Positions 719 to 20,274 of a stretch of 23,481 bases of DNA are shown here, piece after piece. The stretch's first letter is position 1; every line of letters begins with the position of its first letter. The notes under the pieces are model-generated. The model ran no database searches. It saw only the letters and a list, made by a program, of their open reading frames with translations, and had not been told where the DNA came from. Made by a program: the position numbers and the translations under genes. Origin of the DNA: a virus (Duplodnaviria > Heunggongvirae > Uroviricota > Caudoviricetes); the IMG/VR virus record IMGVR_UViG_2565956633_000002; one strand, given 5' to 3'.

Positions 719-1279
719 TTAGTGCATGATGTTTGCCATTTCATAGGCGTCAGCCAGCAACTCCATCTCTGACTTGTTCAACAAGGTGAATTCTTTCTTG
801 CCTCCTACCACGCCATCGGCATGAACAGGGACCAGCCAGGGGTATTTTTCTCTTACTTCAGCCGGTGCTGCATGCTGGTGGTGCCATCTGCAAAGGGGCA
901 ATTGCTTTTTGTGACAACCCGGCGCGGTACGACCGGAGATATGGTGCAGAGACACCTCTTCAGATATTACTCCATGCATGTAGCAGGCAATGCAGGGGAG
1001 AGTGCCAAGAGCATTGGCGATGGTCCGTTCCTCCGCCGTCGGTGTTCGCCCCTTCAAGCCACGAGATTTTATTTTTACCGCACTTTTCCGCGTTTTGCTG
1101 GCTGGTGGGCGCTCTTTCTGTTTAGCGATACGGCGGTCGATAGAATCCCGCATTTTCTGATATTGCGATTCTCGCCAGGCGGGGTCAGCCAACTTTTCCC
1201 GTTGCCGAGCGATCGCTCGTTCTCTGGCTGCCTTCTGCCACTCGCGGCGCTGTTCAAGTTTTTGTTCGATTGTTTTCAT
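719..1279 (-). CDS. ref: Ref, recombination enhancement function (HNH-family endonuclease), 186 aa
   Basis: Translation MKTIEQKLEQRREWQKAARERAIARQREKLADPAWRESQ...CYMHGVISEEVSLHH...CRWHH...EMANIMH matches P1 Ref as I remember it, with a basic N-terminal tail and an HNH Cys/His core. The 212-codon ORF in the track begins at a TTG; the first ATG (1279-1277) gives the 186-aa product. Confidence 0.85.
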   Translation of the reverse strand: MKTIEQKLEQRREWQKAARERAIARQREKLADPAWRESQYQKMRDSIDRRIAKQKERPPASKTRKSAVKIKSRGLKGRTPTAEERTIANALGTLPCIACYMHGVISEEVSLHHISGRTAPGCHKKQLPLCRWHHQHAAPAEVREKYPWLVPVHADGVVGGKKEFTLLNKSEMELLADAYEMANIMH

Positions 1280-1284
1280 ATGGC

Positions 1285-1310
1285 AAAAAAAAGGCGGCCT
1301 AATGGCCGCC
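1285..1310 (-). terminator. intrinsic terminator-like hairpin plus U8 in the ref leader, directly abutting the ref ATG
   Basis: Minus-strand RNA reads GGCGGCC-AUUA-GGCCGCC followed by UUUUUUUU, then GCCAU and the AUG. It is a 7-bp GC stem with a 4-nt loop, and there is no Shine-Dalgarno between the U-run and the start. Confidence 0.55.
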
Positions 1311-1394: not shown

Positions 1395-1500
1395 GGTAGA
1401 TATTTTGTTTCTCGCGAATCACATTTTTTCACTTCAGTACCTGTGTGCTATACTCCTTCTTGATTGATTGGATGCGGAATACAAACCCGCTCTTTTGTGC

Positions 1501-1528
1501 AGCCTGGCTCCTTGCCAGGCTTTTTTTT
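1501..1528 (+). terminator. rho-independent terminator, plus strand
   Basis: AGCCTGGC-TCCTT-GCCAGGCT is a perfect 8-bp stem with a 5-nt loop, followed by T8 (1521-1528). No plus-strand gene lies upstream, so it probably ends a short plus-strand RNA. Confidence 0.6.
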
Positions 1529-1838
1529 ATTTCATCATGGAAGCTGTTAACGCTTTGGACCTTGCTGAACTGATTGAAAGGGCATTGTTTACCTTACCCA
1601 GGAGTTCGCCAAATTCCCCCATCACTCTAGTAAGCCCGCGCCGCGCTTCCTCCTCCGTTGCATTCATCACAAAATGTTCAGCACTCCGCATGCTTTTAAC
1701 GGGGAACGCAACAGATATCGAGTCGATATCAGGCATCCTATCGCTCAACTTTACGGTGACAATGACAGATGGCGACAGAATATTAGTGCTTACAGACAGC
1801 ACTACATATTTTCCGTCGATGTTGAAATCCTTTCTCAT
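1527..1838 (-). CDS. hypothetical protein, 103 aa, between cre and ref
   Basis: ORF with ATG at 1838 and a C1-type operator just upstream. Product MRKDFNIDGKYVVLSV... is not recognised. The Shine-Dalgarno spacing is short (GGTGG, 3 nt, ATG). Confidence 0.45.
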   Translation of the reverse strand: MRKDFNIDGKYVVLSVSTNILSPSVIVTVKLSDRMPDIDSISVAFPVKSMRSAEHFVMNATEEEARRGLTRVMGEFGELLGKVNNALSISSARSKALTASMMK

Positions 1839-1854
1839 ATGCCACCATAAATAT

Positions 1855-1871
1855 CAAAGAATTAGAGCAAT
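1855..1871 (-). promoter_or_regulatory. C1 operator
   Basis: Minus strand reads ATTGCTCTAATTCTTTG (13/17 to consensus). It lies between the cre stop and the 103-codon ORF. Confidence 0.55.
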
Positions 1872-1888
1872 CATTTACGCGTTAATGG

Positions 1889-2920
1889 CTAATTGCCATC
1901 TTCCAGCAGGCGCACCATTGCCCCTGTTTCACTATCCAGGTTACGGATATAGTTCATGACAATATTTACGTTGGTCCAGCCACCAGCTTGCATGATCTCC
2001 GGTATTGAAACTCCGGCACGGGCCATATCTCGCGCGGCTCCGACACGGGCACTGTGTCCAGACCAGGCCAGGTACCTCTGTCCAGAGTCATCCTTAGCCC
2101 CGTAAATCAATCGGTGAGTTGCTTCAAAAATCCCTTCTAGGGCGCGAGTTGATAGCTGGCTGGTGGGTGATGGCGAGGCAACACCATTTTTTCTGACCCG
2201 GCAAAACAGGTAGTTATTCGGATCATCAGCCACACCAGAGACAGAAATCCATCGCTCGACCAGTTTAGTTACCCCCAGGCTAAGTGCCTTCTCTACACCT
2301 GCGGTGCTAACCAGCGTTTTCGTTCTGCCAATATGGATTAACATTCTCCCACCGTCAGTACGTGAGATATCTTTAACCCTGATCCTGGCAATTTCGGCTA
2401 TACGTAACAGGGTGTTATAAGCAATCCCCAGAAATGCCAGATTACGTATATCCTGGCAGCGATCGCTATTTTCCATGAGTGAACGAACCTGGTCGAAATC
2501 AGTGCGTTCGAACGCTAGTGCCTGTTTTGCACGTTCACCGGCATCAACGTTTTCTTTTCGGATCCGCCGCATAACCAGTGAAACAGCATTGCTATCACTT
2601 GGTCGCGGCAGCCCGGACCGACGATGAAGCATGTTTAGCTGGCCCAAATGTTGCTGGATAGTTTTTACTGCCAGACCGCGCGCCTGAAGATATAGAAGAT
2701 AATCGCGAACATCTTCAGGTTCTGCGGGAAACCATTTCCGGTTATTCAACTTGCACCATGCCGCCCACGACCGGCAAACGGACAGAAGCATTTTCCAGGT
2801 ATGCTCAGAAAACGCCTGGCGATCCCTGAACATGTCCATCAGGTTCTTGCGAACCTCATCACTCGTTGCATCGACCGGTAATGCAGGCAAATTTTGGTGT
2901 ACGGTCAGTAAATTGGACAT
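1889..2920 (-). CDS. cre: Cre site-specific tyrosine recombinase, 343 aa
   Basis: Translation MSNLLTVHQNLPALPVDATSDEVRKNLMDMFRDRQAFSEHTWKMLLSVCRSWAAWCKLNNRKWFP...RLLEDGN is Cre. The DNA is near-identical to the P1 cre sequence I know from vectors. Differences I can see: ASPSPT where P1 has AAPSAT, and a C-terminal N where P1 has D. Confidence 0.97.
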   Translation of the reverse strand: MSNLLTVHQNLPALPVDATSDEVRKNLMDMFRDRQAFSEHTWKMLLSVCRSWAAWCKLNNRKWFPAEPEDVRDYLLYLQARGLAVKTIQQHLGQLNMLHRRSGLPRPSDSNAVSLVMRRIRKENVDAGERAKQALAFERTDFDQVRSLMENSDRCQDIRNLAFLGIAYNTLLRIAEIARIRVKDISRTDGGRMLIHIGRTKTLVSTAGVEKALSLGVTKLVERWISVSGVADDPNNYLFCRVRKNGVASPSPTSQLSTRALEGIFEATHRLIYGAKDDSGQRYLAWSGHSARVGAARDMARAGVSIPEIMQAGGWTNVNIVMNYIRNLDSETGAMVRLLEDGN

Positions 2921-2927
2921 TTAACAC

Positions 2928-3149
2928 TCAGATAATGGTTTTAAGTAAAGTGTACAGGATCGGCTCTGCCTTTACCTGTTTATGGTTCTCGTCATAGAAA
3001 CGCCAGCGACCGCGCGTGCGTTCTATTTTCTCTTCACCGCGCGATAATGACAGTTGGCAACTATCACGATCAAACCCTTTTGCCCGCCAGTAACCACGGT
3101 TTTTCTCAAGCTCAAGATGAGTGGACACTTTAGCAGCTGAATATCCCAT
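2928..3149 (-). CDS. hypothetical protein, 73 aa, immediately upstream of cre
   Basis: ATG at 3149 is preceded by GAGGTG then AAAA. The stop lies 8 bp before the cre ATG. Product MGYSAAKVSTHLELEKNRGYWRAKGF... is not recognised. Confidence 0.45.
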   Translation of the reverse strand: MGYSAAKVSTHLELEKNRGYWRAKGFDRDSCQLSLSRGEEKIERTRGRWRFYDENHKQVKAEPILYTLLKTII

Positions 3150-3246
3150 TTTTCACCTCTGATTGATTGGTGGTGCTAAGTGCGCTACGCGAAATCTGGA
3201 GTACTAACACTGCCAACATTTCGCAGATTTTACGTAGCGCAACCTT

Positions 3247-3319
3247 GATCAAATGATCAAGTGATCACTATTTGACCTGATAAGGTATTGAACTGTATGG
3301 ATTTACAGGTGAATTGATC
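3247..3319. promoter_or_regulatory. cluster of four Dam (GATC) sites in the cre upstream region
   Basis: GATC at 3247, 3255, 3263 and 3316, within the palindromes TTGATCAAATGATCAA and AGTGATCACT. From memory, the P1 cre promoter region is reported to be methylation-regulated. Confidence 0.4.
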
Positions 3320-3379
3320 ATGTTCAATAACCCTTAAGGGTCTGAAGAGGAGTTTACGTCCAGCTGCGCATAAAAATCA

Positions 3380-3396
3380 AGAATTATTAGAGCAAT
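3380..3396 (-). promoter_or_regulatory. C1 operator (Op99-like)
   Basis: Minus strand reads ATTGCTCTAATAATTC. Confidence 0.65.
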
Positions 3397-3462
3397 AAAT
3401 TTTGAGAGAAAAATCCCACTCCACCAGCCAAAAACTGGATTGTTTTTCATAGTTGTTTGACA

Positions 3463-4037: not shown

Positions 4038-4889
4038 ATGATAAATTATGTCTACGGCGAACAACTGTACCAGGAGTTCGTCAGCTTCAGGGATCTCTTT
4101 CTAAAAAAAGCTGTTGCACGCGCCCAACACGTTGATGCCGCCAGCGACGGTCGTCCTGTTCGCCCGGTTGTCGTTCTGCCGTTCAAAGAAACGGACAGCA
4201 TTCAGGCTGAAATTGATAAATGGACTTTAATGGCGCGGGAACTGGAACAGTACCCAGACCTCAATATCCCAAAGACTATTTTATATCCAGTGCCTAACAT
4301 CCTTCGCGGTGTGCGTAAGGTTACGACTTATCAGACAGAAGCTGTGAACAGCGTCAACATGACCGCTGGCCGCATTATTCATCTGATTGATAAGGACATT
4401 CGCATCCAGAAAAGCGCGGGGATCAATGAGCACAGTGCGAAATACATAGAGAACCTGGAAGCAACAAAAGAGCTAATGAAGCAGTACCCGGAGGATGAAA
4501 AATTCCGTATGCGTGTACACGGCTTTAGCGAAACAATGCTGCGCGTCCACTACATTTCCAGTAGCCCTAACTACAATGATGGTAAATCAGTTAGTTACCA
4601 TGTGCCGCTGTGTGGTGTGTTTATCTGCGATGAAACTCTCCGTGATGGAATCATCATCAACGGTGAATTCGAGAAAGCAAAATTTAGCCTTTATGACTCT
4701 ATAGAACCGATCATCTGCGACCGCTGGCCGCAGGCAAAAATATATCGCCTGGCAGATATTGAAAATGTAAAAAAACAAATTGCCATCACTCGCGAAGAGA
4801 AAAAGGTCAAATCAGCCGCATCAGTTACGCGCAGCCGTAACACTAAGAAGGGGCAGCCAGTAAACGACAACCCCGAAAGCGCGCAATAA
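4038..4889 (+). CDS. c1: C1 repressor of lysis (immC), 283 aa
   Basis: Translation MINYVYGEQLYQEFVSFRDLFLKKAVARAQHVDAASDGRPVRPVVVLPFKETDSIQAEIDKW... matches P1 C1 in sequence and length. Strong Shine-Dalgarno GGAGGAGG. Confidence 0.95.
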   Translation: MINYVYGEQLYQEFVSFRDLFLKKAVARAQHVDAASDGRPVRPVVVLPFKETDSIQAEIDKWTLMARELEQYPDLNIPKTILYPVPNILRGVRKVTTYQTEAVNSVNMTAGRIIHLIDKDIRIQKSAGINEHSAKYIENLEATKELMKQYPEDEKFRMRVHGFSETMLRVHYISSSPNYNDGKSVSYHVPLCGVFICDETLRDGIIINGEFEKAKFSLYDSIEPIICDRWPQAKIYRLADIENVKKQIAITREEKKVKSAASVTRSRNTKKGQPVNDNPESAQ

Positions 4890-4921: not shown

Positions 4922-6040
4922 TTATTCAGCTGCCACCGGTTTTAACAAGCCAGCATCGAGCAGTTTACGCGTCAACCACTGCTGGCCTTTACCCGTTAAT
5001 TGAGGCGTCAACCGTATCTGGTAGCCATCTTCATCATCCAGCACCACTTCTTTCACCGTGAAATACCCCGCGTTGATGTACTGCTGGAACGGCACATTTT
5101 TACGTCCACCGGACGCTATCAGGATGCCGTTCTCCCGTAACCAGACAAACAGCGCGTTTTGCTTAAGTCCAACAACCTTTGCAAAATTCCCAATCAGGAT
5201 CCCTTTAGCTACTGATACCCGGTCGGCAAAATCGACTTTAGGAGCGGCGGCCACCAGCTGCTGATTTAGCTGGTGGGCTTTCTGTTCCAGAAGTTGCTTT
5301 TGTTCAGCCAGTTCGGCAGCCAGGCGTAGGGCTTCAGGAAGCGTCTGGGGGATTGCGATCGGTTGCTGTTCTTTTTGTCGGAAGTAGCTGTCTTCCAGTT
5401 TTTCAAAGAATGCCCATGCCTGATCGGTTTCGAGCATTTTAGCGTGGCGGGCTGCGCCGCGTTCTGTCCAGAGGGTGAGTGAGCGAACATTGCGAGCAAT
5501 TTTTACAGAGTAGTTTAAAGCTACTCTGTGCTTCAACTCGCGCAATGATTCTCCTTCAACTTTGAAAAAGTGCTTCCCTTCAACAAAGCGTACTTTGTTC
5601 TCATGATGATTTTGGCGAATACGGATTGTTTCTGTCCCATACCCTCTAGCAAGAGTCTCGGTTGTCACTACACGCACTCCCTGCCATTCCAGAACGGGAA
5701 TTTCATCAGACTGATTCTGAACAACCACCAGCTCCGATTCCTGAACTGAAGGTGCATGAATTTTTTCTGATTTAACGTTAGTTGCTTTCATTCTGTGTGC
5801 CTCCTTGCGTGCTTCGGCTGCGACGGTTGCGTAATTCAGATGACCCTGTTCGAGCAGGTATTCGCGAATATCAGACAGCAGGATACGGTGAACCGCGTTC
5901 TTGTCCTTTCTCCGGTAAAGTTGTTTAGTGATCATGAAGTAGTTGGCTATAACACTGGGAATATCCCTGGTGCTGATACAGGCAGTGTGCTGTTCAATTG
6001 CCTCGATCATCTCTTCACGGGTGACTAATGACGTTCTCAT
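4922..6040 (-). CDS. ant: antirepressor Ant1 (372 aa) with in-frame internal start for Ant2 (ATG at 5790, 289 aa); ORF6N/Bro-N-like and KilA-C-like regions
   Basis: 372-codon ORF translationally coupled to the upstream 73-codon ORF (ATGA overlap at 6037-6040). A perfect internal Shine-Dalgarno AAGGAGG sits 8 nt before Met84. The predicted 41 kDa and 32 kDa products fit P1 Ant1/Ant2. The C-terminal region looks like a KilA-C antirepressor domain. Confidence 0.7.
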   Translation of the reverse strand: MRTSLVTREEMIEAIEQHTACISTRDIPSVIANYFMITKQLYRRKDKNAVHRILLSDIREYLLEQGHLNYATVAAEARKEAHRMKATNVKSEKIHAPSVQESELVVVQNQSDEIPVLEWQGVRVVTTETLARGYGTETIRIRQNHHENKVRFVEGKHFFKVEGESLRELKHRVALNYSVKIARNVRSLTLWTERGAARHAKMLETDQAWAFFEKLEDSYFRQKEQQPIAIPQTLPEALRLAAELAEQKQLLEQKAHQLNQQLVAAAPKVDFADRVSVAKGILIGNFAKVVGLKQNALFVWLRENGILIASGGRKNVPFQQYINAGYFTVKEVVLDDEDGYQIRLTPQLTGKGQQWLTRKLLDAGLLKPVAAE

Positions 6041-6258: not shown

Positions 6259-6423
6259 ATTGGCAGCCTCCTTAGACGTTGGTATGTAACCACCGCAGAA
6301 GAGACCAATCTTGCTGGCGGTGGACTGTACGGAGTTGGCCTTACTGGCGTCCAAGGTAACCAGCCTACCCGAAGGTAGCCCCATACAGCCCACCATTGTA
6401 GAGGTGTGCGTGTACGCCGATAC

Positions 6424-6447
6424 AAAAAAAAGACGCGAGCGGCGTCT
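6424..6447 (-). terminator. rho-independent terminator, minus strand
   Basis: Minus RNA reads AGACGC-CGCTC-GCGTCT followed by U8 (plus-strand A-run at 6424-6431). Confidence 0.55.
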
Positions 6448-6570
6448 GTATCGCCTTAGACTTAAGCGGGAGGCCAATCCCGGCACCCGTTTTAATGAGG
6501 TGCCTGATAAGCATAAACCGAAAATGCCTCAAGGCGCAAGAGGTCAGGTTCAATGTAACATCGGTAGCTA
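6448..6570 (-). ncRNA. candidate c4-like antisense regulatory RNA (boundaries approximate)
   Basis: This is the transcribed region between a C1-operator promoter and the terminator. It contains AUUGGCCUCC, which is complementary to the icd ribosome-binding site GGAGGCUGCCAAU, and a GUCUAAGG copy also present at that site. The arrangement follows the P1 c4-icd-ant paradigm. Confidence 0.3.
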
Positions 6571-14828: not shown

Positions 14829-17800
14829 ATGACTCATCAGACACACACCATTGCTGAATCCAATAACTTTATCGTTCTTGATAAGTACATCAAAGCTGAG
14901 CAAACAGGCGACAGCTATCAGAGTGAATCGGACCTGGAACGGGAACTGATTCAGGACCTGCGAAATCAGGGCTATGAATTTATACCCGTAAAATCACAGT
15001 CGGCGATGCTGGCCAACGTTCGGGAACAGCTTCAGAACCTCAATGGTGTGGTGTTTAATGACAGCGAATGGCGGCGTTTCACGGAGCAGTATCTGGACAA
15101 CCCGAGTGATGGCATTCTGGATAAGACCCGTAAAATCCATATCGACTATATTTGCGACTTTATTTTTGATGACGAGCGTCTTGAGAACATCTATTTGATA
15201 GATAAAAAGAATCTCATGCGCAATAAGGTGCAGATTATCCAGCAGTTTGAACAGACGGGTTCTCATGCTAACCGTTATGACGTCACGATCCTGGTTAATG
15301 GTTTACCGCTGGTGCAAATCGAACTAAAAAAACGCGGGGTGGCGATTCGTGAGGCTTTCAACCAGATACATCGTTACAGTAAAGAGAGTTTTAACAGCGA
15401 AAATTCCCTGTTTAAGTATCTGCAACTGTTTGTCATTTCTAACGGCACCGATACCCGTTATTTTGCCAACACGACAAAGCGCGATAAAAACAGTTTTGAC
15501 TTCACCATGAATTGGGCGAAATCAGACAACACGCTGATTAAAGACCTCAAAGACTTTACCGCTACCTTTTTCCAGAAACATACTCTGCTGAATGTTCTGG
15601 TGAACTACAGCGTTTTTGACAGTAGTCAGACGCTACTGGTGATGCGACCGTACCAGATTGCCGCCACCGAACGAATCTTATGGAAAATCAACAGCTCCTA
15701 TAAAGCGAAAAACTGGTCTAATCCCGAAAGCGGTGGCTTTATCTGGCACACTACCGGTTCTGGTAAAACACTGACCAGCTTTAAAGCCGCGCGTCTGGCA
15801 ACAGAACTGGACTTTATTGATAAAGTCTTCTTCGTGGTCGACAGGAAAGACCTCGATTACCAGACCATGAAGGAATACCAGCGTTTTTCGCCAGACAGCG
15901 TCAACGGCTCGGAAAATACCGCAGGTCTTAAACGAAATCTGGATAAGGACGATAACAAAATTATCGTCACCACTATTCAGAAACTTAATAACCTGATGAA
16001 AGCAGAAAGCGACCTGCCTGTATACAATCAGCAAGTGGTGTTTATATTTGATGAATGCCACCGCAGCCAGTTTGGAGAAGCGCAGAAAAACCTGAAGAAG
16101 AAATTCAAACGCTATTATCAGTTTGGTTTTACCGGCACACCTATTTTCCCGGAAAACGCTTTAGGCTCAGAAACGACCGCCAGCGTATTTGGCCGTGAAT
16201 TGCATTCGTATGTGATTACCGATGCGATTCGAGATGAAAAAGTGCTTAAATTCAAGGTGGACTACAACGATGTGCGGCCACAGTTTAAGTCTTTAGAGAC
16301 AGAAACCGACGAGAAAAAACTGAGTGCGGCTGAAAATCAGCAGGCGTTTCTTCATCCCATGCGTATACAGGAAATTACGCAATATATTCTGAATAACTTC
16401 CGCCAGAAGACCCACCGTACTTTCCCAGGTTCCAAAGGCTTTAATGCCATGCTGGCAGTGAGTAGCGTGGATGCCGCGAAAGCCTATTACGCGACGTTTA
16501 AACGGTTACAAGAGGAAGCAGCTAATAAATCGGCTACCTATAAACCGCTGCGTGTTGCGACAATCTTCTCCTTTGCCGCCAATGAAGAACAAAATGCCAT
16601 TGGTGAAATTTCCGATGAAACTTTTGATACCAGCGCAATGGACAGCAGTGCTAAAGAGTTTCTGGACGCTGCAATTCGTGAATATAACAGCCATTTTAAA
16701 ACTAACTTTAGCACCGACAGTAACGGTTTTCAGAACTACTATCGTGATTTAGCCCAGCGGGTTAAAAATCAGGATATCGATCTGCTAATTGTCGTGGGGA
16801 TGTTTTTAACCGGCTTCGATGCTCCAACATTGAACACGCTATTCGTCGATAAAAACTTGCGTTTTCACGGCCTGATGCAGGCATTTTCCCGCACCAACCG
16901 TATTTATGATGCAACTAAAACCTTCGGTAATATCGTCACTTTCCGGGATCTGGAACGCTCAACTATTGATGCCATAACGCTGTTTGGTGACAAAAACACC
17001 AAAAATGTGGTGTTAGAAAAGAGTTATACAGAGTATATGGAAGGCTTTACTGATGCTGCTACAGGTGAAGCTAAACGCGGCTTCATGACAGTAGTTTCAG
17101 AACTGGAACAACGGTTCCCTGACCCTGCCAGTATTGAAAGTGAAAAAGAGAAGAAAGACTTCGTTAAACTGTTTGGCGAATACCTGCGTGCCGAGAACAT
17201 CCTGCAAAACTATGATGAATTTGCCACGCTAAAAGCCCTGCAACAAATCGATCTTAGCGATCCTGTTGCGGTAGAAAAATTCAAAGCAGAACATTATGTG
17301 GATGATGAAAAGTTCGCTGAATTGCAAACAATTCGTCTCCCTGCTGATCGCAAGATTCAGGATTATCGTTCTGCCTATAACGATATTCGCGACTGGCAGC
17401 GCCGTGAGAAAGAAGCTGAGAAAAAAGAGAAATCAACCACTGACTGGGATGACGTAGTTTTTGAGGTCGATTTGCTGAAGTCTCAGGAAATAAACCTGGA
17501 TTATATCCTTGGACTGATTTTCGAACACAACAGACAAAATAAAGGCAAGGGCGAAATGATCGAAGAGGTCAAACGCTTAATTCGTTCAAGCCTGGGGAAC
17601 CGAGCGAAAGAGGGCCTGGTGGTCGATTTTATTCAGCAAACGAACCTGGATGATTTACCAGATAAAGCCAGTATCATTGAGGCATTCTTTACGTTTGCTC
17701 AACGCGAACAGCAACGTGAAGCAGAAGCATTGATAAAAGAAGAAAATCTCAATGAAGAAGCAGCAAAACGCTATATTCGCACGTCTTTAAAACGCGAATA

Positions 17801-17945
17801 CGCCACCGAAAATGGCACAGAATTAAACGAAACATTACCAAAACTTAGTCCATTGAATCCGCAATATAAAACGAAAAAACAGGCAGTTTTCCAGAAAATC
17901 GTCTCGTTTATTGAGAAGTTTAAAGGCGTAGGCGGAAAAATATAG
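14829..17945 (+). CDS. hsdR: Type I restriction endonuclease subunit HsdR, Type IC, 1038 aa
   Basis: Superfamily 2 helicase motifs are present (Walker A TGSGKT, DEAH-box FDECHRSQ). The 1038-aa length matches EcoR124I HsdR as I recall it. Shine-Dalgarno AAGGA. Confidence 0.93.
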
Positions 17946-17962
17946 CCCAATTCGTGTTTTTC

Positions 17963-17990
17963 TTGCGGGTTCTTAATTAAACCCGCAAGA
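17963..17990. repeat. perfect 9-bp inverted repeat CTTGCGGGT / ACCCGCAAG around a TTAATTAA core, just after the hsdR stop
   Basis: Read directly from the sequence. There is no U-run after the stem in either transcript orientation, so it is not a classical terminator. It is a possible protein-binding site or island boundary. Confidence 0.5.
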
Positions 17991-18024
17991 GACCGTGGGG
18001 TTCCAAATGGCTAATATACTCCCC

Positions 18025-18111
18025 TTACCCATGCGCGACGATGCCGCCAAAAGTGATAGAGAACAGCCAGAAATAGATCGCGGTCATAATGATTTTGAAT
18101 ACCGTGTTCAT
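18025..18111 (-). CDS. small hydrophobic peptide, 28 aa, predicted single transmembrane helix
   Basis: ATG at 18111 is preceded by Shine-Dalgarno CAGGAG with a 7-nt spacer. Product is MNTVFKIIMTAIYFWLFSITFGGIVAHG. A C1-type operator lies about 85 bp upstream. It is convergent with hsdR. Confidence 0.4.
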   Translation of the reverse strand: MNTVFKIIMTAIYFWLFSITFGGIVAHG

Positions 18112-18140
18112 ATCTTCAGCTCCTGTGATTGATTGGATAT

Positions 18141-18172
18141 ATGCCGCGCCCCTTGCGGCATGTTTTTATTTT
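18141..18172 (+). terminator. rho-independent terminator, plus strand
   Basis: ATGCCGC-GCCCCTT-GCGGCAT followed by GTTTTTATTTT. Confidence 0.55.
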
Positions 18173-18195
18173 CACTTTCTCTGTTTTAAAAAACA

Positions 18196-18791: not shown

Positions 18792-20054
18792 TCAGCGAAC
18801 GTAAATAGTGCCGCCGTTCTCTTTTTCCCATGCATCGCTACGTGCATAGCAAACATCGAGAAGTCTTCTTGCCGCTGTTTCCTCTAAACCCAATTCGACA
18901 ACCAACTGCTCATGACGGCGGGTAACCACATCAAACAGGGTATGCAGCCCTTTAGCTGCCAGATCATCAATAAATTCCGGTTCGAACGGCAGCTCTGCCT
19001 CTGCCAACATAACCTCTTGCGCCCACTCAACTCGACGGACCAGTTCCGGGCGGCGGCTTTCCATCTCTTTACAGATCAATTCATGGAAGAACTCTACCCA
19101 ACCTTCCGGCTGGAACTCGCGGAAAATGGCCAACGGCTGGAAGTTTGGCATCAACCATTCGTTGATCCGGATATCAATGGCATAGCCCATGTCGCAGCAG
19201 AACTGATAAGCAAAGTCCAGCTTAGAAACGATATAAGGACGCTCGTTATTGAACTCTTTAGGCGATGAGATCCCATAAGCCAGGAGGCGCGGGAAGAAGG
19301 AGATTTGCCCTAACGTCGGATGAAGTTTGCTTGCAGGGAAACGGCGCTCAGTAATGCCATACATTTCCTTCTTGAGCGTCGCAAATTTGGCATTCTCATT
19401 AACCAGCGCGGTAACCTCTGCTTTTTTATTAGCAAATGCCACGCGCGCCTCGCTTGCATCTTTAATAGTTTTTTTGAGCTGTTGGTTAAGGTCGGCGACC
19501 TGCTTACGCAGTTCCTGTCGCTCGCTTTTAGCTTTGTTATAGCGTTTCTCAAGGTTAAAAGGATCAAGTTTCATGATCTCTTTATATTGAGATTTTAGCG
19601 TTGAAATCTGTGAGTTCCGCAGTTCAACCATCGCGGTCATTTCATTGAGTTTTGTTTCCAGCTCAATGCTTATACGTTCGGCATTATCAGCACGCTGGTT
19701 GGCGTCATGCGTCGCATCGTCGATCGCGTCCTGTTGCTGGCGTTTCAAATGTTCAATTTGCAGCTGAAGCTCTTCAATTTCTTTACCCTTCAGACCAAGA
19801 TCCAACTGCATATTTTCAGCTGCATCTACCAGGGAGTTATGGCTATCAGCTTCTGCGTTATAAACATCAATAAGCTGTGCGTGAAGCATCTCCGCTGACT
19901 GAACCGCATTATCAAAAAAACGCGCTGTGAGGTCATCACAACTAACGCGGCGTTGCGCGGCCCGGATGTTCTGGATAATGGCCGGGATACCGGCATTCAG
20001 GACGTCAGGGATAGATACATTTTCGATTGATTGGTTTTGTGCTGAAGTGCTCAT
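18792..20054 (-). CDS. hypothetical protein, 420 aa, with a long N-terminal coiled-coil region and an unrecognised C-terminal domain
   Basis: Long ORF with a heptad-rich, charged N-terminal half (LKGKEIEELQLQIEHLKRQQQDAIDD...) and a C-terminal globular part. Its start lies 1 nt after the stop of the upstream 72-codon ORF (TGAAATG). Confidence 0.7.
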   Translation of the reverse strand: MSTSAQNQSIENVSIPDVLNAGIPAIIQNIRAAQRRVSCDDLTARFFDNAVQSAEMLHAQLIDVYNAEADSHNSLVDAAENMQLDLGLKGKEIEELQLQIEHLKRQQQDAIDDATHDANQRADNAERISIELETKLNEMTAMVELRNSQISTLKSQYKEIMKLDPFNLEKRYNKAKSERQELRKQVADLNQQLKKTIKDASEARVAFANKKAEVTALVNENAKFATLKKEMYGITERRFPASKLHPTLGQISFFPRLLAYGISSPKEFNNERPYIVSKLDFAYQFCCDMGYAIDIRINEWLMPNFQPLAIFREFQPEGWVEFFHELICKEMESRRPELVRRVEWAQEVMLAEAELPFEPEFIDDLAAKGLHTLFDVVTRRHEQLVVELGLEETAARRLLDVCYARSDAWEKENGGTIYVR

Positions 20055-20055
20055 T

Positions 20056-20274
20056 TCAAAGTTCCGTATTAGCTTGTGCTTCGGTCATTTTTCCTAAGTA
20101 TGAAGGTGGAAGGACTACGCAATTTGTATCCAGTCCCTCACCTATGGCAGCCTGTAAAATTCTGGCTAAGGTGAGTCTCTTGTTGCGATACCTGGTGATG
20201 ACATGCCTGATACCGCCGGTCGGCGTAACAAAGGCGATCAGCCAGTAGTGATATTTCCGTCGGAATGGCCACAT
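20056..20274 (-). CDS. hypothetical basic protein, 72 aa, first gene of a two-gene operon
   Basis: ATG at 20274 with Shine-Dalgarno AAGGTG and a 4-nt spacer. A C1 operator lies 15 bp upstream. Product is MWPFRRKYHYWLIAFVTPTGGIRHVITRYRNKRL... Confidence 0.5.
   Translation of the reverse strand: MWPFRRKYHYWLIAFVTPTGGIRHVITRYRNKRLTLARILQAAIGEGLDTNCVVLPPSYLGKMTEAQANTEL

Follow-up and report, generated by a model that had tools for sequence, protein, structure and literature searches.

A predicted trans-acting small RNA with a conserved 5' seed in P1-type phage-plasmids

A short plus-strand gene between ref and c8 probably encodes a real regulator of P1-like phages, as judged from its conservation and its complementary sites. 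In the window analysed here (the whole stretch of 23,481 nucleotides), we consider it rather likely that positions 1462-1528 of the plus strand are the gene of a non-coding RNA of about 67 nt, which would act in trans on translation start regions through a 5'-terminal seed. The RNA is most likely a new trans-acting sRNA of an already known kind, and it is unannotated even in P1. A short trans-acting plus-strand RNA had been proposed at this place in an earlier note on the window. That proposal is supported by the conserved architecture, the invariant seed, the sites at start regions, and the matching of RNA nucleotide 11 with the targets; the 5' end and the target set were revised. No prior description of the RNA was found in the literature by sequence or by concept, and a mention in the P1 genome paper or in subscription journals is possible. 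The library of a P1 RNA-seq study (PMC8201110) was unstranded.

Genomic setting and the predicted transcript

The whole window is of the P1-type phage-plasmid kind, and its orientation is reversed relative to the P1 coordinates. The identity of the region around the candidate is 99.4% to phiW39 and SJ46, and 94.3% to P1. The candidate was correctly placed by the earlier note between ref and a 103-codon gene, which is named c8 in the P1 record; the 73-codon gene of that note is cra. The genes that flank the candidate are all on the minus strand:

719-1279, minus strand, ref
1527-1838, minus strand, c8 (the 103-codon gene)
1889-2920, minus strand, cre
2928-3149, minus strand, cra (the 73-codon gene)

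The P1 record places two ref promoters and the C1 operator Oref in the c8-ref spacer, all on the minus strand; it annotates no plus-strand feature and no terminator in that spacer. The "establishment of lysogeny" locus c8 is assigned only putatively to the 103-codon ORF in the same record. The candidate gene is convergent with the cra-cre-c8 operon and abuts the end of this gene block in all three lineages compared below. In the arizonae and JK004 lineages, c8 and the RNA terminator are separated by an additional membrane ORF of about 52 codons (L211, about 2830-2990; L214, 3315-3473, gene_58), so that the RNA gene there abuts the stop codon of that ORF and not that of c8.

Other parts of the window were also noted. 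The loxP arm ATAACTTCGTATA (up to 2 mismatches), expected near 3300-3400, is absent from the whole 23.5 kb window, despite a Cre nearly identical to P1 Cre and a cra leader with its GATC cluster. The window appears to depart from the P1 sequence just past about 3300. An antirepressor-like gene (4922-6040, minus strand), a C4 RNA (6313-6400, minus strand), and an isrK-like RNA (6426-6503, minus strand) directly follow c1 (4038-4889, plus strand); an immI-type module therefore adjoins immC in this lineage, which presumably differs from the P1 layout.

The predicted RNA gene consists of the following features:

1426-1431, plus strand, weak -35-like hexamer TTTTCA, 17 nt before the -10 (promoter scan)
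1444-1454, plus strand, extended -10 TGTGcTATACT, with TG at 1446-1447 and the hexamer TATACT at 1449-1454 (sigma-70 scan and sequence reading)
1455-1461, plus strand, -10-to-start spacer CCTTCTT, 7 nt, fixed in length and variable in sequence
1462-1528, plus strand, predicted primary transcript of about 67 nt, equal to complement(1828..1894) of the P1 record AF234172
1462-1471, plus strand, seed GAUUGAUUGG at the 5' end, first 7-9 nt predicted single-stranded
1470-1493, plus strand, internal hairpin with a GCGG/CCGC core (fold prediction)
1501-1528, plus strand, intrinsic terminator, with a stem-loop at 1501-1521 (8-bp stem with 6 G-C, 5-nt loop) and a T8 run to 1528

The promoter scan called TTTTCA-17-TATACT with the TG, ending at 1454. 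The extended -10 element of the earlier note is therefore real, and its coordinates (1445-1453) were one base off, as TGcTATACT ends at 1454. The columns 1445-1453 show no variation in 78 distinct P1-type sequences, and TGnTATACT is retained in the Salmonella arizonae plasmid CP053320, in Cronobacter phage JK004, and in the variants L215 and L217. The upstream sequences of the arizonae plasmid and JK004 are different, and contain no counterpart of the TTTTCA hexamer. A late (Lpa-dependent) P1 promoter was considered and rejected. A promoter of this class should have a 9-bp -22 box at a fixed distance of 4 nt from the -10, like the one annotated for LPmat; that box (AAGTGACTT) has no counterpart at 1436-1444 (AGTACCTGT). 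The 8-mer ACTTCAGT is common to LPmat and this promoter region, but it is 10 nt out of register.

The RNA had been supposed to begin with CUCCUUCUU, including an anti-Shine-Dalgarno sequence. This 5' end is ruled out, since C1453 and U1454 close the -10 hexamer, and 1455-1461 form the spacer. The CUCC overlaps the hexamer, so that the start would be near G1462 and the 5' end would be GAUUGAUUGG; the anti-Shine-Dalgarno sequence falls outside the predicted RNA and is not conserved. G1462 is a purine 8 nt past the hexamer, with a pyrimidine before it, and its choice is based on the position of the -10 and on where conservation and complementarity begin. The comparative data agree with this start. 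The spacer occurs in nine variants, always of 7 nt (among them CCTTCTT, CTTTCTT, CCTTTCT, CCCTTCC, and CGTTCTT in the P1 type; CATTCGC, CGTTCGC, and CATCCGC in the other lineages), and the next ten bases are invariant in all but one plasmid.

In the predicted fold (-23.2 kcal/mol, z = -3.0), the 5' end is free and is followed by a small hairpin, a U-rich linker, and the terminator; the mean unpaired probability of the seed is 0.55-0.70. The terminator proposed earlier at 1501-1528 was confirmed on the plus strand, as an 8-pair stem-loop followed by T8. On the minus strand the hairpin is followed by GCACAAAAG, so that only plus-strand transcripts would be terminated. The U-tail of the RNA abuts the c8 stop codon (1527-1529, minus strand). 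Hfq-type features were also looked for: the P1-type RNA has the U8 tail and a UCUUUUGUGC linker, and the linker is not U-rich in arizonae and JK004.

A plus-strand peptide was rejected. The earlier statement that the region has no plus-strand ORF is right in substance and wrong in the letter: three mechanical ORFs (42, 28, and 163 codons) run through it, and none is credible. They have no Shine-Dalgarno sequence, and nothing of them is conserved in the other lineages. An internal T-run varies from 5 to 9 T between isolates, and this length polymorphism excludes a plus-strand reading frame. A promoter of its own and an intrinsic terminator are thus predicted to bound a short non-coding transcript, as in trans-acting sRNAs of the 5'-seed type. 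The Rfam search, at the gathering threshold and at a permissive E-value, found no family for the candidate; the best score was 22.6 bits for SorX (cut-off 46.6), which reflects a generic likeness to sRNA terminators.

Conservation of the RNA locus

The P1-type comparison included 78 distinct sequences, from 80 viral contigs and P1. The 86-nt block 1443-1528 is the locally most conserved stretch in these sequences. Its mean pairwise diversity (pi) is 0.013; the values are 0.079 in c8 as a whole, 0.16 at its third codon positions, and 0.085-0.14 in the spacer beside the block. The seed columns 1462-1471 are invariant in all 78 sequences, and the predicted RNA gene is identical in P1 and P7. The block is kept in loci where unrelated DNA replaces the ref side. 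It was also found in 615 of 5,426 complete E. coli genomes (11%), always with at least 95% identity, and the c8 CDS is the only annotation beneath it.

The seed and its targets are both invariant inside the P1 type (78 loci), which leaves no seed-target co-variation there. The target regions are also too uniformly conserved for a site-specific constraint to show; the pmgS-pap region, for example, is nearly invariant. Some observations count against the reading as a regulator. One E. albertii plasmid has a G10 to U change in the seed, and its three targets are unchanged. About a dozen of the 78 loci have unrelated sequence without the 11-mer at cra and its leader, and the RNA gene is unchanged in them. 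The cra gene would thus be dispensable or replaceable. The loci with a replaced cra position include L016, L017, L022, L034, L069, L075, and L079, and L046 is also listed; the cra ATG is changed to CTG in two loci.

Distant relatives were searched by tblastn with C8, which found the arizonae plasmid CP053320 (C8 50% identical) and then phage JK004. The variants L215 and L217 came to light when viral contigs were scanned for the pattern. One genome per species was also scanned for an exact pattern with 16 fixed bases; nearly all hits were chance matches in unrelated phyla, and the real ones were L148 and L168 alone. The arizonae plasmid and JK004 have the same design at this locus: TGaTATACT, a 7-nt spacer (CATTCGC), an identical GATTGATTGG, a hairpin of unrelated sequence, GUGC, and a terminator. 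In both, the locus immediately follows the c8 operon, in convergent orientation.

An alignment of 15 distinct RNAs from three lineages showed that seed positions 1-9, the GUGC, and most of the terminator are invariant; position 10 is changed in one plasmid. The middle of the RNA cannot be aligned between lineages, and the hairpin is kept in position but not in sequence. The single-stranded recognition element is thus conserved above the RNA body, as in other 5'-seed sRNAs. In the three-lineage alignment of the locus, the 10-mer has 100% identity, versus 38% in its flanks, and the only other conserved blocks are TGTGnTATACTC (the promoter island) and the terminator. All 120 cells of the terminator helix pair, with one compensatory change (U-A to C-G) and two wobble-compatible changes. 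This covariation is a single event, and its support is therefore modest.

Complementary sites and pairing with the seed

The 11-mer CCAATCAATCA occurs in three exact copies in the window, all on the minus strand (1461-1471, 3160-3170, and 18126-18136). The copy at 3160-3170 is one base before the Shine-Dalgarno sequence of cra, and the copy at 18126-18136 is one base before that of a 28-codon ORF. The earlier note had described the RNA as carrying the complement of an element before the start sites of these two ORFs, and the exact 11-mer does precede both. With up to one mismatch, the window has 5 hits versus 0.69 expected, and none of 100 shuffles reached 5; the 103-kb SJ46 genome has 3 exact copies versus 0.075 expected. 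The 10-mer CCAATCAATC occurs 5 times in SJ46, 4 times in arizonae, and 6 times in JK004, versus about 0.2 expected per genome of about 95 kb (own arithmetic, with equal base frequencies assumed). All copies are on the sense strand, except for one antisense copy in SJ46, and the sense copies outside the RNA locus are at translation start regions. The predicted targets in the window are as follows:

3161-3170, minus strand, CCAAUCAAUC at -21 to -12 of cra (Shine-Dalgarno sequence GAGGUG at 3154-3159, AUG at 3147-3149)
18127-18136, minus strand, CCAAUCAAUC at -25 to -16 of the 28-codon hydrophobic ORF (18025-18111)
20025-20034, minus strand, CCAAUCAAUC at +21 to +30 of pmgS (codons 7-10)

The cra site has an unpaired probability of 0.84, and the homologous operon leaders of arizonae and JK004 retain the motif. 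Across the three lineages, the pmgS motif is 100% identical versus 63% in its flanks, and the motif in the small-ORF leader is 90% identical versus 46%. Apart from the copy at the RNA locus, JK004 has five copies, all between -26 and +30 of start codons:

-26 to -17 of gene_62, the first gene of the gene_62-cra-cre-c8 operon
+21 to +30 of pmgS
directly before the Shine-Dalgarno sequence of the small hydrophobic ORF
directly before the Shine-Dalgarno sequence of a second small membrane ORF
-10 to -1 of gene_52 (Ref)

Four of these five sites are within 30 nt of CDS starts given in the JK004 record. About 4% of the strand positions are that near an annotated start, which gives P of about 1e-5 by our own arithmetic. 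Start regions were taken from the CDS starts of the records, since an annotation-free mask was too crude and missed pmgS, whose AUG overlaps an upstream stop. In the arizonae plasmid, the homologous operon leader, pmgS, and the second small ORF each carry the motif; at the first small ORF it is shortened to a 9-mer. The second small membrane ORF of arizonae and JK004 is behind a C1-operator-like sequence, with the 10-mer just before its Shine-Dalgarno sequence. The predicted target set is thus larger than proposed before, with pmgS added in the window, and ref and the second small membrane ORF in other lineages.

Several features of these target genes were observed. The 28-codon hydrophobic ORF (sequence MNTVFKIIMTAIYFWLFSITFGGIVAHG; 18025-18111, minus strand) is at about 84,400-84,480 of the P1 record; the C1 operator Op88 and the pmgT promoters of P1 precede it, and it is the first ORF behind them. 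It is unannotated in the P1 record and is annotated in SJ46 as a longer "membrane protein". The ORF reads MNT[VA]FKIIM.AIYFWLFSITFGGI in the window, P1, and SJ46; the arizonae ORF has 46 aa with the same N-terminal hydrophobic stretch. The gene for a type I restriction R subunit (14829-17945) ends just before the small ORF, with 17950-18025 between them, at the position of pmgT in P1. According to the P1 record, this stretch is matched by DNA that follows the hsd loci of EcoDXXI and R124/3, so that recombination seems to have recurred at the junction immediately behind the 28-codon ORF. The gene pmgS starts with an ATG that overlaps the stop codon of the preceding frame (TGAAATG, window 20055-20090, minus strand), which suggests translational coupling; pmgS would therefore not be a first cistron, unlike the other predicted targets. 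The pmgS site at +21 to +30 is also past the region where pairing is known to block initiation.

The ref leader has a strong terminator-like hairpin between the annotated ref promoters and the ref start, GGCGGCC-ATTA-GGCCGCC followed by T8 (window 1285-1310, minus strand), which ends 5 nt before the ATG. The equivalent leader hairpin of JK004 ref has another stem (GACGGTC-TTCG-GACCGTC, followed by T8) and is followed by the 10-mer. This arrangement suggests a conserved terminator or attenuator in the leader of ref. A paralogous second RNA gene was considered at 18126-18175 (plus-strand seed, hairpin, and T-run). It was rejected, as a promoter is missing, and arizonae and JK004 do not keep the T-run. 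The equivalent hairpin in these two lineages is the 5' stem-loop of the small-ORF mRNA.

RNA nucleotide 11, the first after the seed, is U in arizonae, C in JK004, and A in the P1 type. Its counterpart in the targets is the base 5' of the 10-mer. All three arizonae targets with the full 10-mer have A there; all five JK004 targets have G, and so do both targets of L215, which is JK004-like. Three homologous sites (the operon leader, pmgS, and the second small ORF) switch together with RNA nucleotide 11; at pmgS the switch is an Asn to Ser change. Arizonae targets have 11-13 contiguous pairs and JK004 targets have 11-14, G-U pairs included. The complementarity in these two lineages never extends upstream of the predicted +1, and it reaches 1-4 nt downstream of the seed. 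The nucleotide 11 pattern can also fit a lineage-specific flank common to all motif copies, and alone it is compatible with a co-evolving factor that binds the motif.

In the P1 type, the site of the small ORF has 13-15 contiguous pairs, G-U included, and A11 pairs only there. The cra and pmgS sites have only 10 bp because A11 faces A; the cra pairing is 11 bp if transcription starts at T1461. The seeds and target sites are mostly predicted to be unpaired. An RNA-RNA interaction prediction on the cra and 28-codon start regions had been suggested as a check. The duplex energy was no better than that of shuffled seeds: targets gave -22 to -22.5 kcal/mol, versus -20.9 to -23.6 for shuffled 20-mers in the same genome. 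Ranking of targets by duplex energy is therefore uninformative. The complementary sites are enriched at start regions and co-vary with the RNA, as for 5'-seed sRNAs, and their duplex energy does not rise above the shuffled background.

Known systems, alternative explanations and a proposed function

The closest likeness is to the 5'-seed sRNAs of the RybB, OmrA/B, and MicC type. These RNAs have a conserved single-stranded stretch of about the first 10 nt, a variable middle, a Rho-independent terminator with a U-tail, and multiple targets at start regions. Most of the targets predicted here have an A just 3' of the paired stretch, and such an A has been described for RybB targets. The candidate differs in that it is phage-encoded and apparently targets the operons of the phage itself, and there is no sequence relationship.

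The earlier note had drawn an analogy to P1 c4, which is valid in function only. C4 blocks the translation of icd, with polarity on ant. Like the C4 RNA of P1 and P7, the candidate would be a phage RNA (C4 has about 70-80 nt) that acts in trans on the ribosome-binding region of a leader ORF, and the same logic could fit the 28-codon ORF and the pmgT operon. However, C4 is cut from the operon transcript that carries its targets, and it has two internal recognition segments; the candidate has a predicted promoter of its own, one 5'-terminal 10-nt seed, and targets in several other units. The extended -10 is 8 nt before the conserved 5' end, and the targets belong to other transcription units, at distances of 1.6-18.6 kb. 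The C4 covariance model (RF01695) had its sole window hit at 6313-6400 (75.9 bits). It gave no match in 1250-1650 at E-values up to 10, and the candidate is thus not a C4 member.

The CI immunity RNA of P4 has a short recognition sequence that is complementary to sites repeated in the phage genome. The candidate is similar as a small phage RNA with a short element complementary to genome-repeated sites. CI arises by processing of a leader transcript and acts by terminating transcription prematurely, whereas the candidate has an independent promoter by prediction and its sites are at start codons.

The small RNAs of tisB/istR-1, shoB/ohsC, and dinQ/agrB can pair over a limited stretch with the 5' part of an mRNA that encodes a tiny hydrophobic peptide. 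The candidate has this feature too, but its genes are not neighbours, and there are extra targets that encode no such peptide. The RNA might be chiefly a type I antitoxin-like RNA, which silences one or more small hydrophobic peptides from C1-controlled leaders, with the other matches as accessories. The 28-codon hydrophobic ORF is conserved (46 aa in arizonae), the second small membrane ORF of arizonae and JK004 also has the 10-mer just before its Shine-Dalgarno sequence, and the longest pairing in the P1 type, of 13-15 pairs, is with the small ORF. The complementarity is 10-15 nt long. However, the RNA gene is 16.6 kb from the ORF and neither overlaps nor adjoins it, and the other targets (operon leader, pmgS, and ref) are equally well conserved. 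A Pfam and PHROG search of the small hydrophobic peptides gave no family match, and their toxicity is purely putative. We regard this explanation as unlikely.

Another explanation is that the RNA is made but acts mainly in cis, either as an antisense RNA to c8 read-through into the ref promoter region or as an insulator between c8 and ref, and that the distant matches are secondary. The RNA gene is convergent with the cra-cre-c8 operon and abuts its last gene in all three lineages. There is also no minus-strand terminator after c8, where the hairpin is followed by GCACAAAAG, so that a read-through RNA would form a 67-bp duplex with the candidate RNA. However, any sequence would be sufficient for such a role, which leaves two things unexplained: the ten 5' bases stay the same although the lineages differ in the RNA body, and the complement of these ten bases is present, with matching flanks, at start regions 1.6-18 kb away. 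Cis and trans roles could coexist, and a mainly cis-acting RNA seems quite improbable to us.

The motif CCAAUCAAUC(A) might also be a sense-strand cis-element, such as a translation enhancer or a factor site. The copy at 1461-1471 would then be a decayed one, the promoter and terminator would be fortuitous, and no RNA would be made. All copies, that of the RNA locus included, are on the same strand. The minus strand of the RNA locus (1440-1529) resembles the leader of the small ORF (18105-18180), with tgaaa(a)taaaaa, a CAAGGRG-loop hairpin, the 11-mer, and a Shine-Dalgarno-like AAGGAG. The flanking base is lineage-specific and common to all copies in a genome, as for a co-evolving binding site, and an A follows the 10-mer at most targets, even where the RNA could not pair with it. 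However, no ORF follows the copy at the RNA locus, and the Shine-Dalgarno-like sequence changes: it is AAGAAGGAG in the window and GCGAAUGAG in arizonae and JK004, and it varies within the P1 type too. The next start codon is 44-50 nt from this copy in arizonae and JK004, unlike at all other copies. The RNA locus also keeps TGTGnTATACTC on the opposite strand, 7 nt from the motif, and a plus-strand-only terminator 40-45 nt further on, across otherwise unrelated sequence; both are absent at the other copies, and neither is needed by a cis-element. A cis-element without an RNA is therefore very unlikely. The likeness of the two regions may mean that the RNA gene arose by duplication of a target leader, whose 5' stem-loop and A-run became the terminator of the RNA.

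An RNA gene is favoured by the traits that only the copy at the RNA locus has, which are the invariant extended -10 at a fixed distance, the plus-strand-only terminator, the position-fixed hairpin, and the lack of an ORF and of a conserved Shine-Dalgarno sequence. An extended -10 promoter that is independent of a -35 would produce a primary RNA of about 67 nt, which would end at its own terminator, convergent with the cra-cre-c8 operon. The single-stranded seed GAUUGAUUGG would pair with CCAAUCAAUC in the start regions of several phage mRNAs: in the window those of cra, the 28-codon leader ORF of the C1-controlled pmgT operon, and pmgS; in the relatives also those of ref and the second small membrane ORF. 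Pairing beside the Shine-Dalgarno sequence would most likely block 30S binding and reduce the translation of the first cistron. Reduced translation of the leader ORF may lower the expression of the operon behind it by polarity. The RNA would be constitutive and would form a post-transcriptional layer over operons that are also under C1, and a cis effect on c8 read-through transcripts may coexist with it.

A further and more tentative idea, which is possible but not what we expect, is that the RNA is a third immunity element. It would be a constitutive post-transcriptional co-repressor of the first cistrons of several operons that are under C1 or related to lysogeny: cra-cre-c8, the pmgT operon through its leader peptide, pmgS, and ref in some lineages. 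If so, it would help to set the lysis-lysogeny balance or the stability of the plasmid prophage, and the "establishment of lysogeny" phenotype of c8 could partly stem from the abutting RNA gene.

P1 is among the best-studied phages and the source of Cre-lox, yet its record is blank on the plus strand at this place. The P1-type phage-plasmids are common and often carry resistance genes, such as CTX-M-27 in SJ46. The regulator would be of a well-known kind, and would extend the existing picture without changing it. If the RNA is real, it would join genes without a known common control, namely the cre operon, ref, pmgS, and the tiny membrane peptides behind C1 operators. It would also define a small and testable regulon, and might give functional leads for cra, c8, and the unannotated 28-codon ORF.
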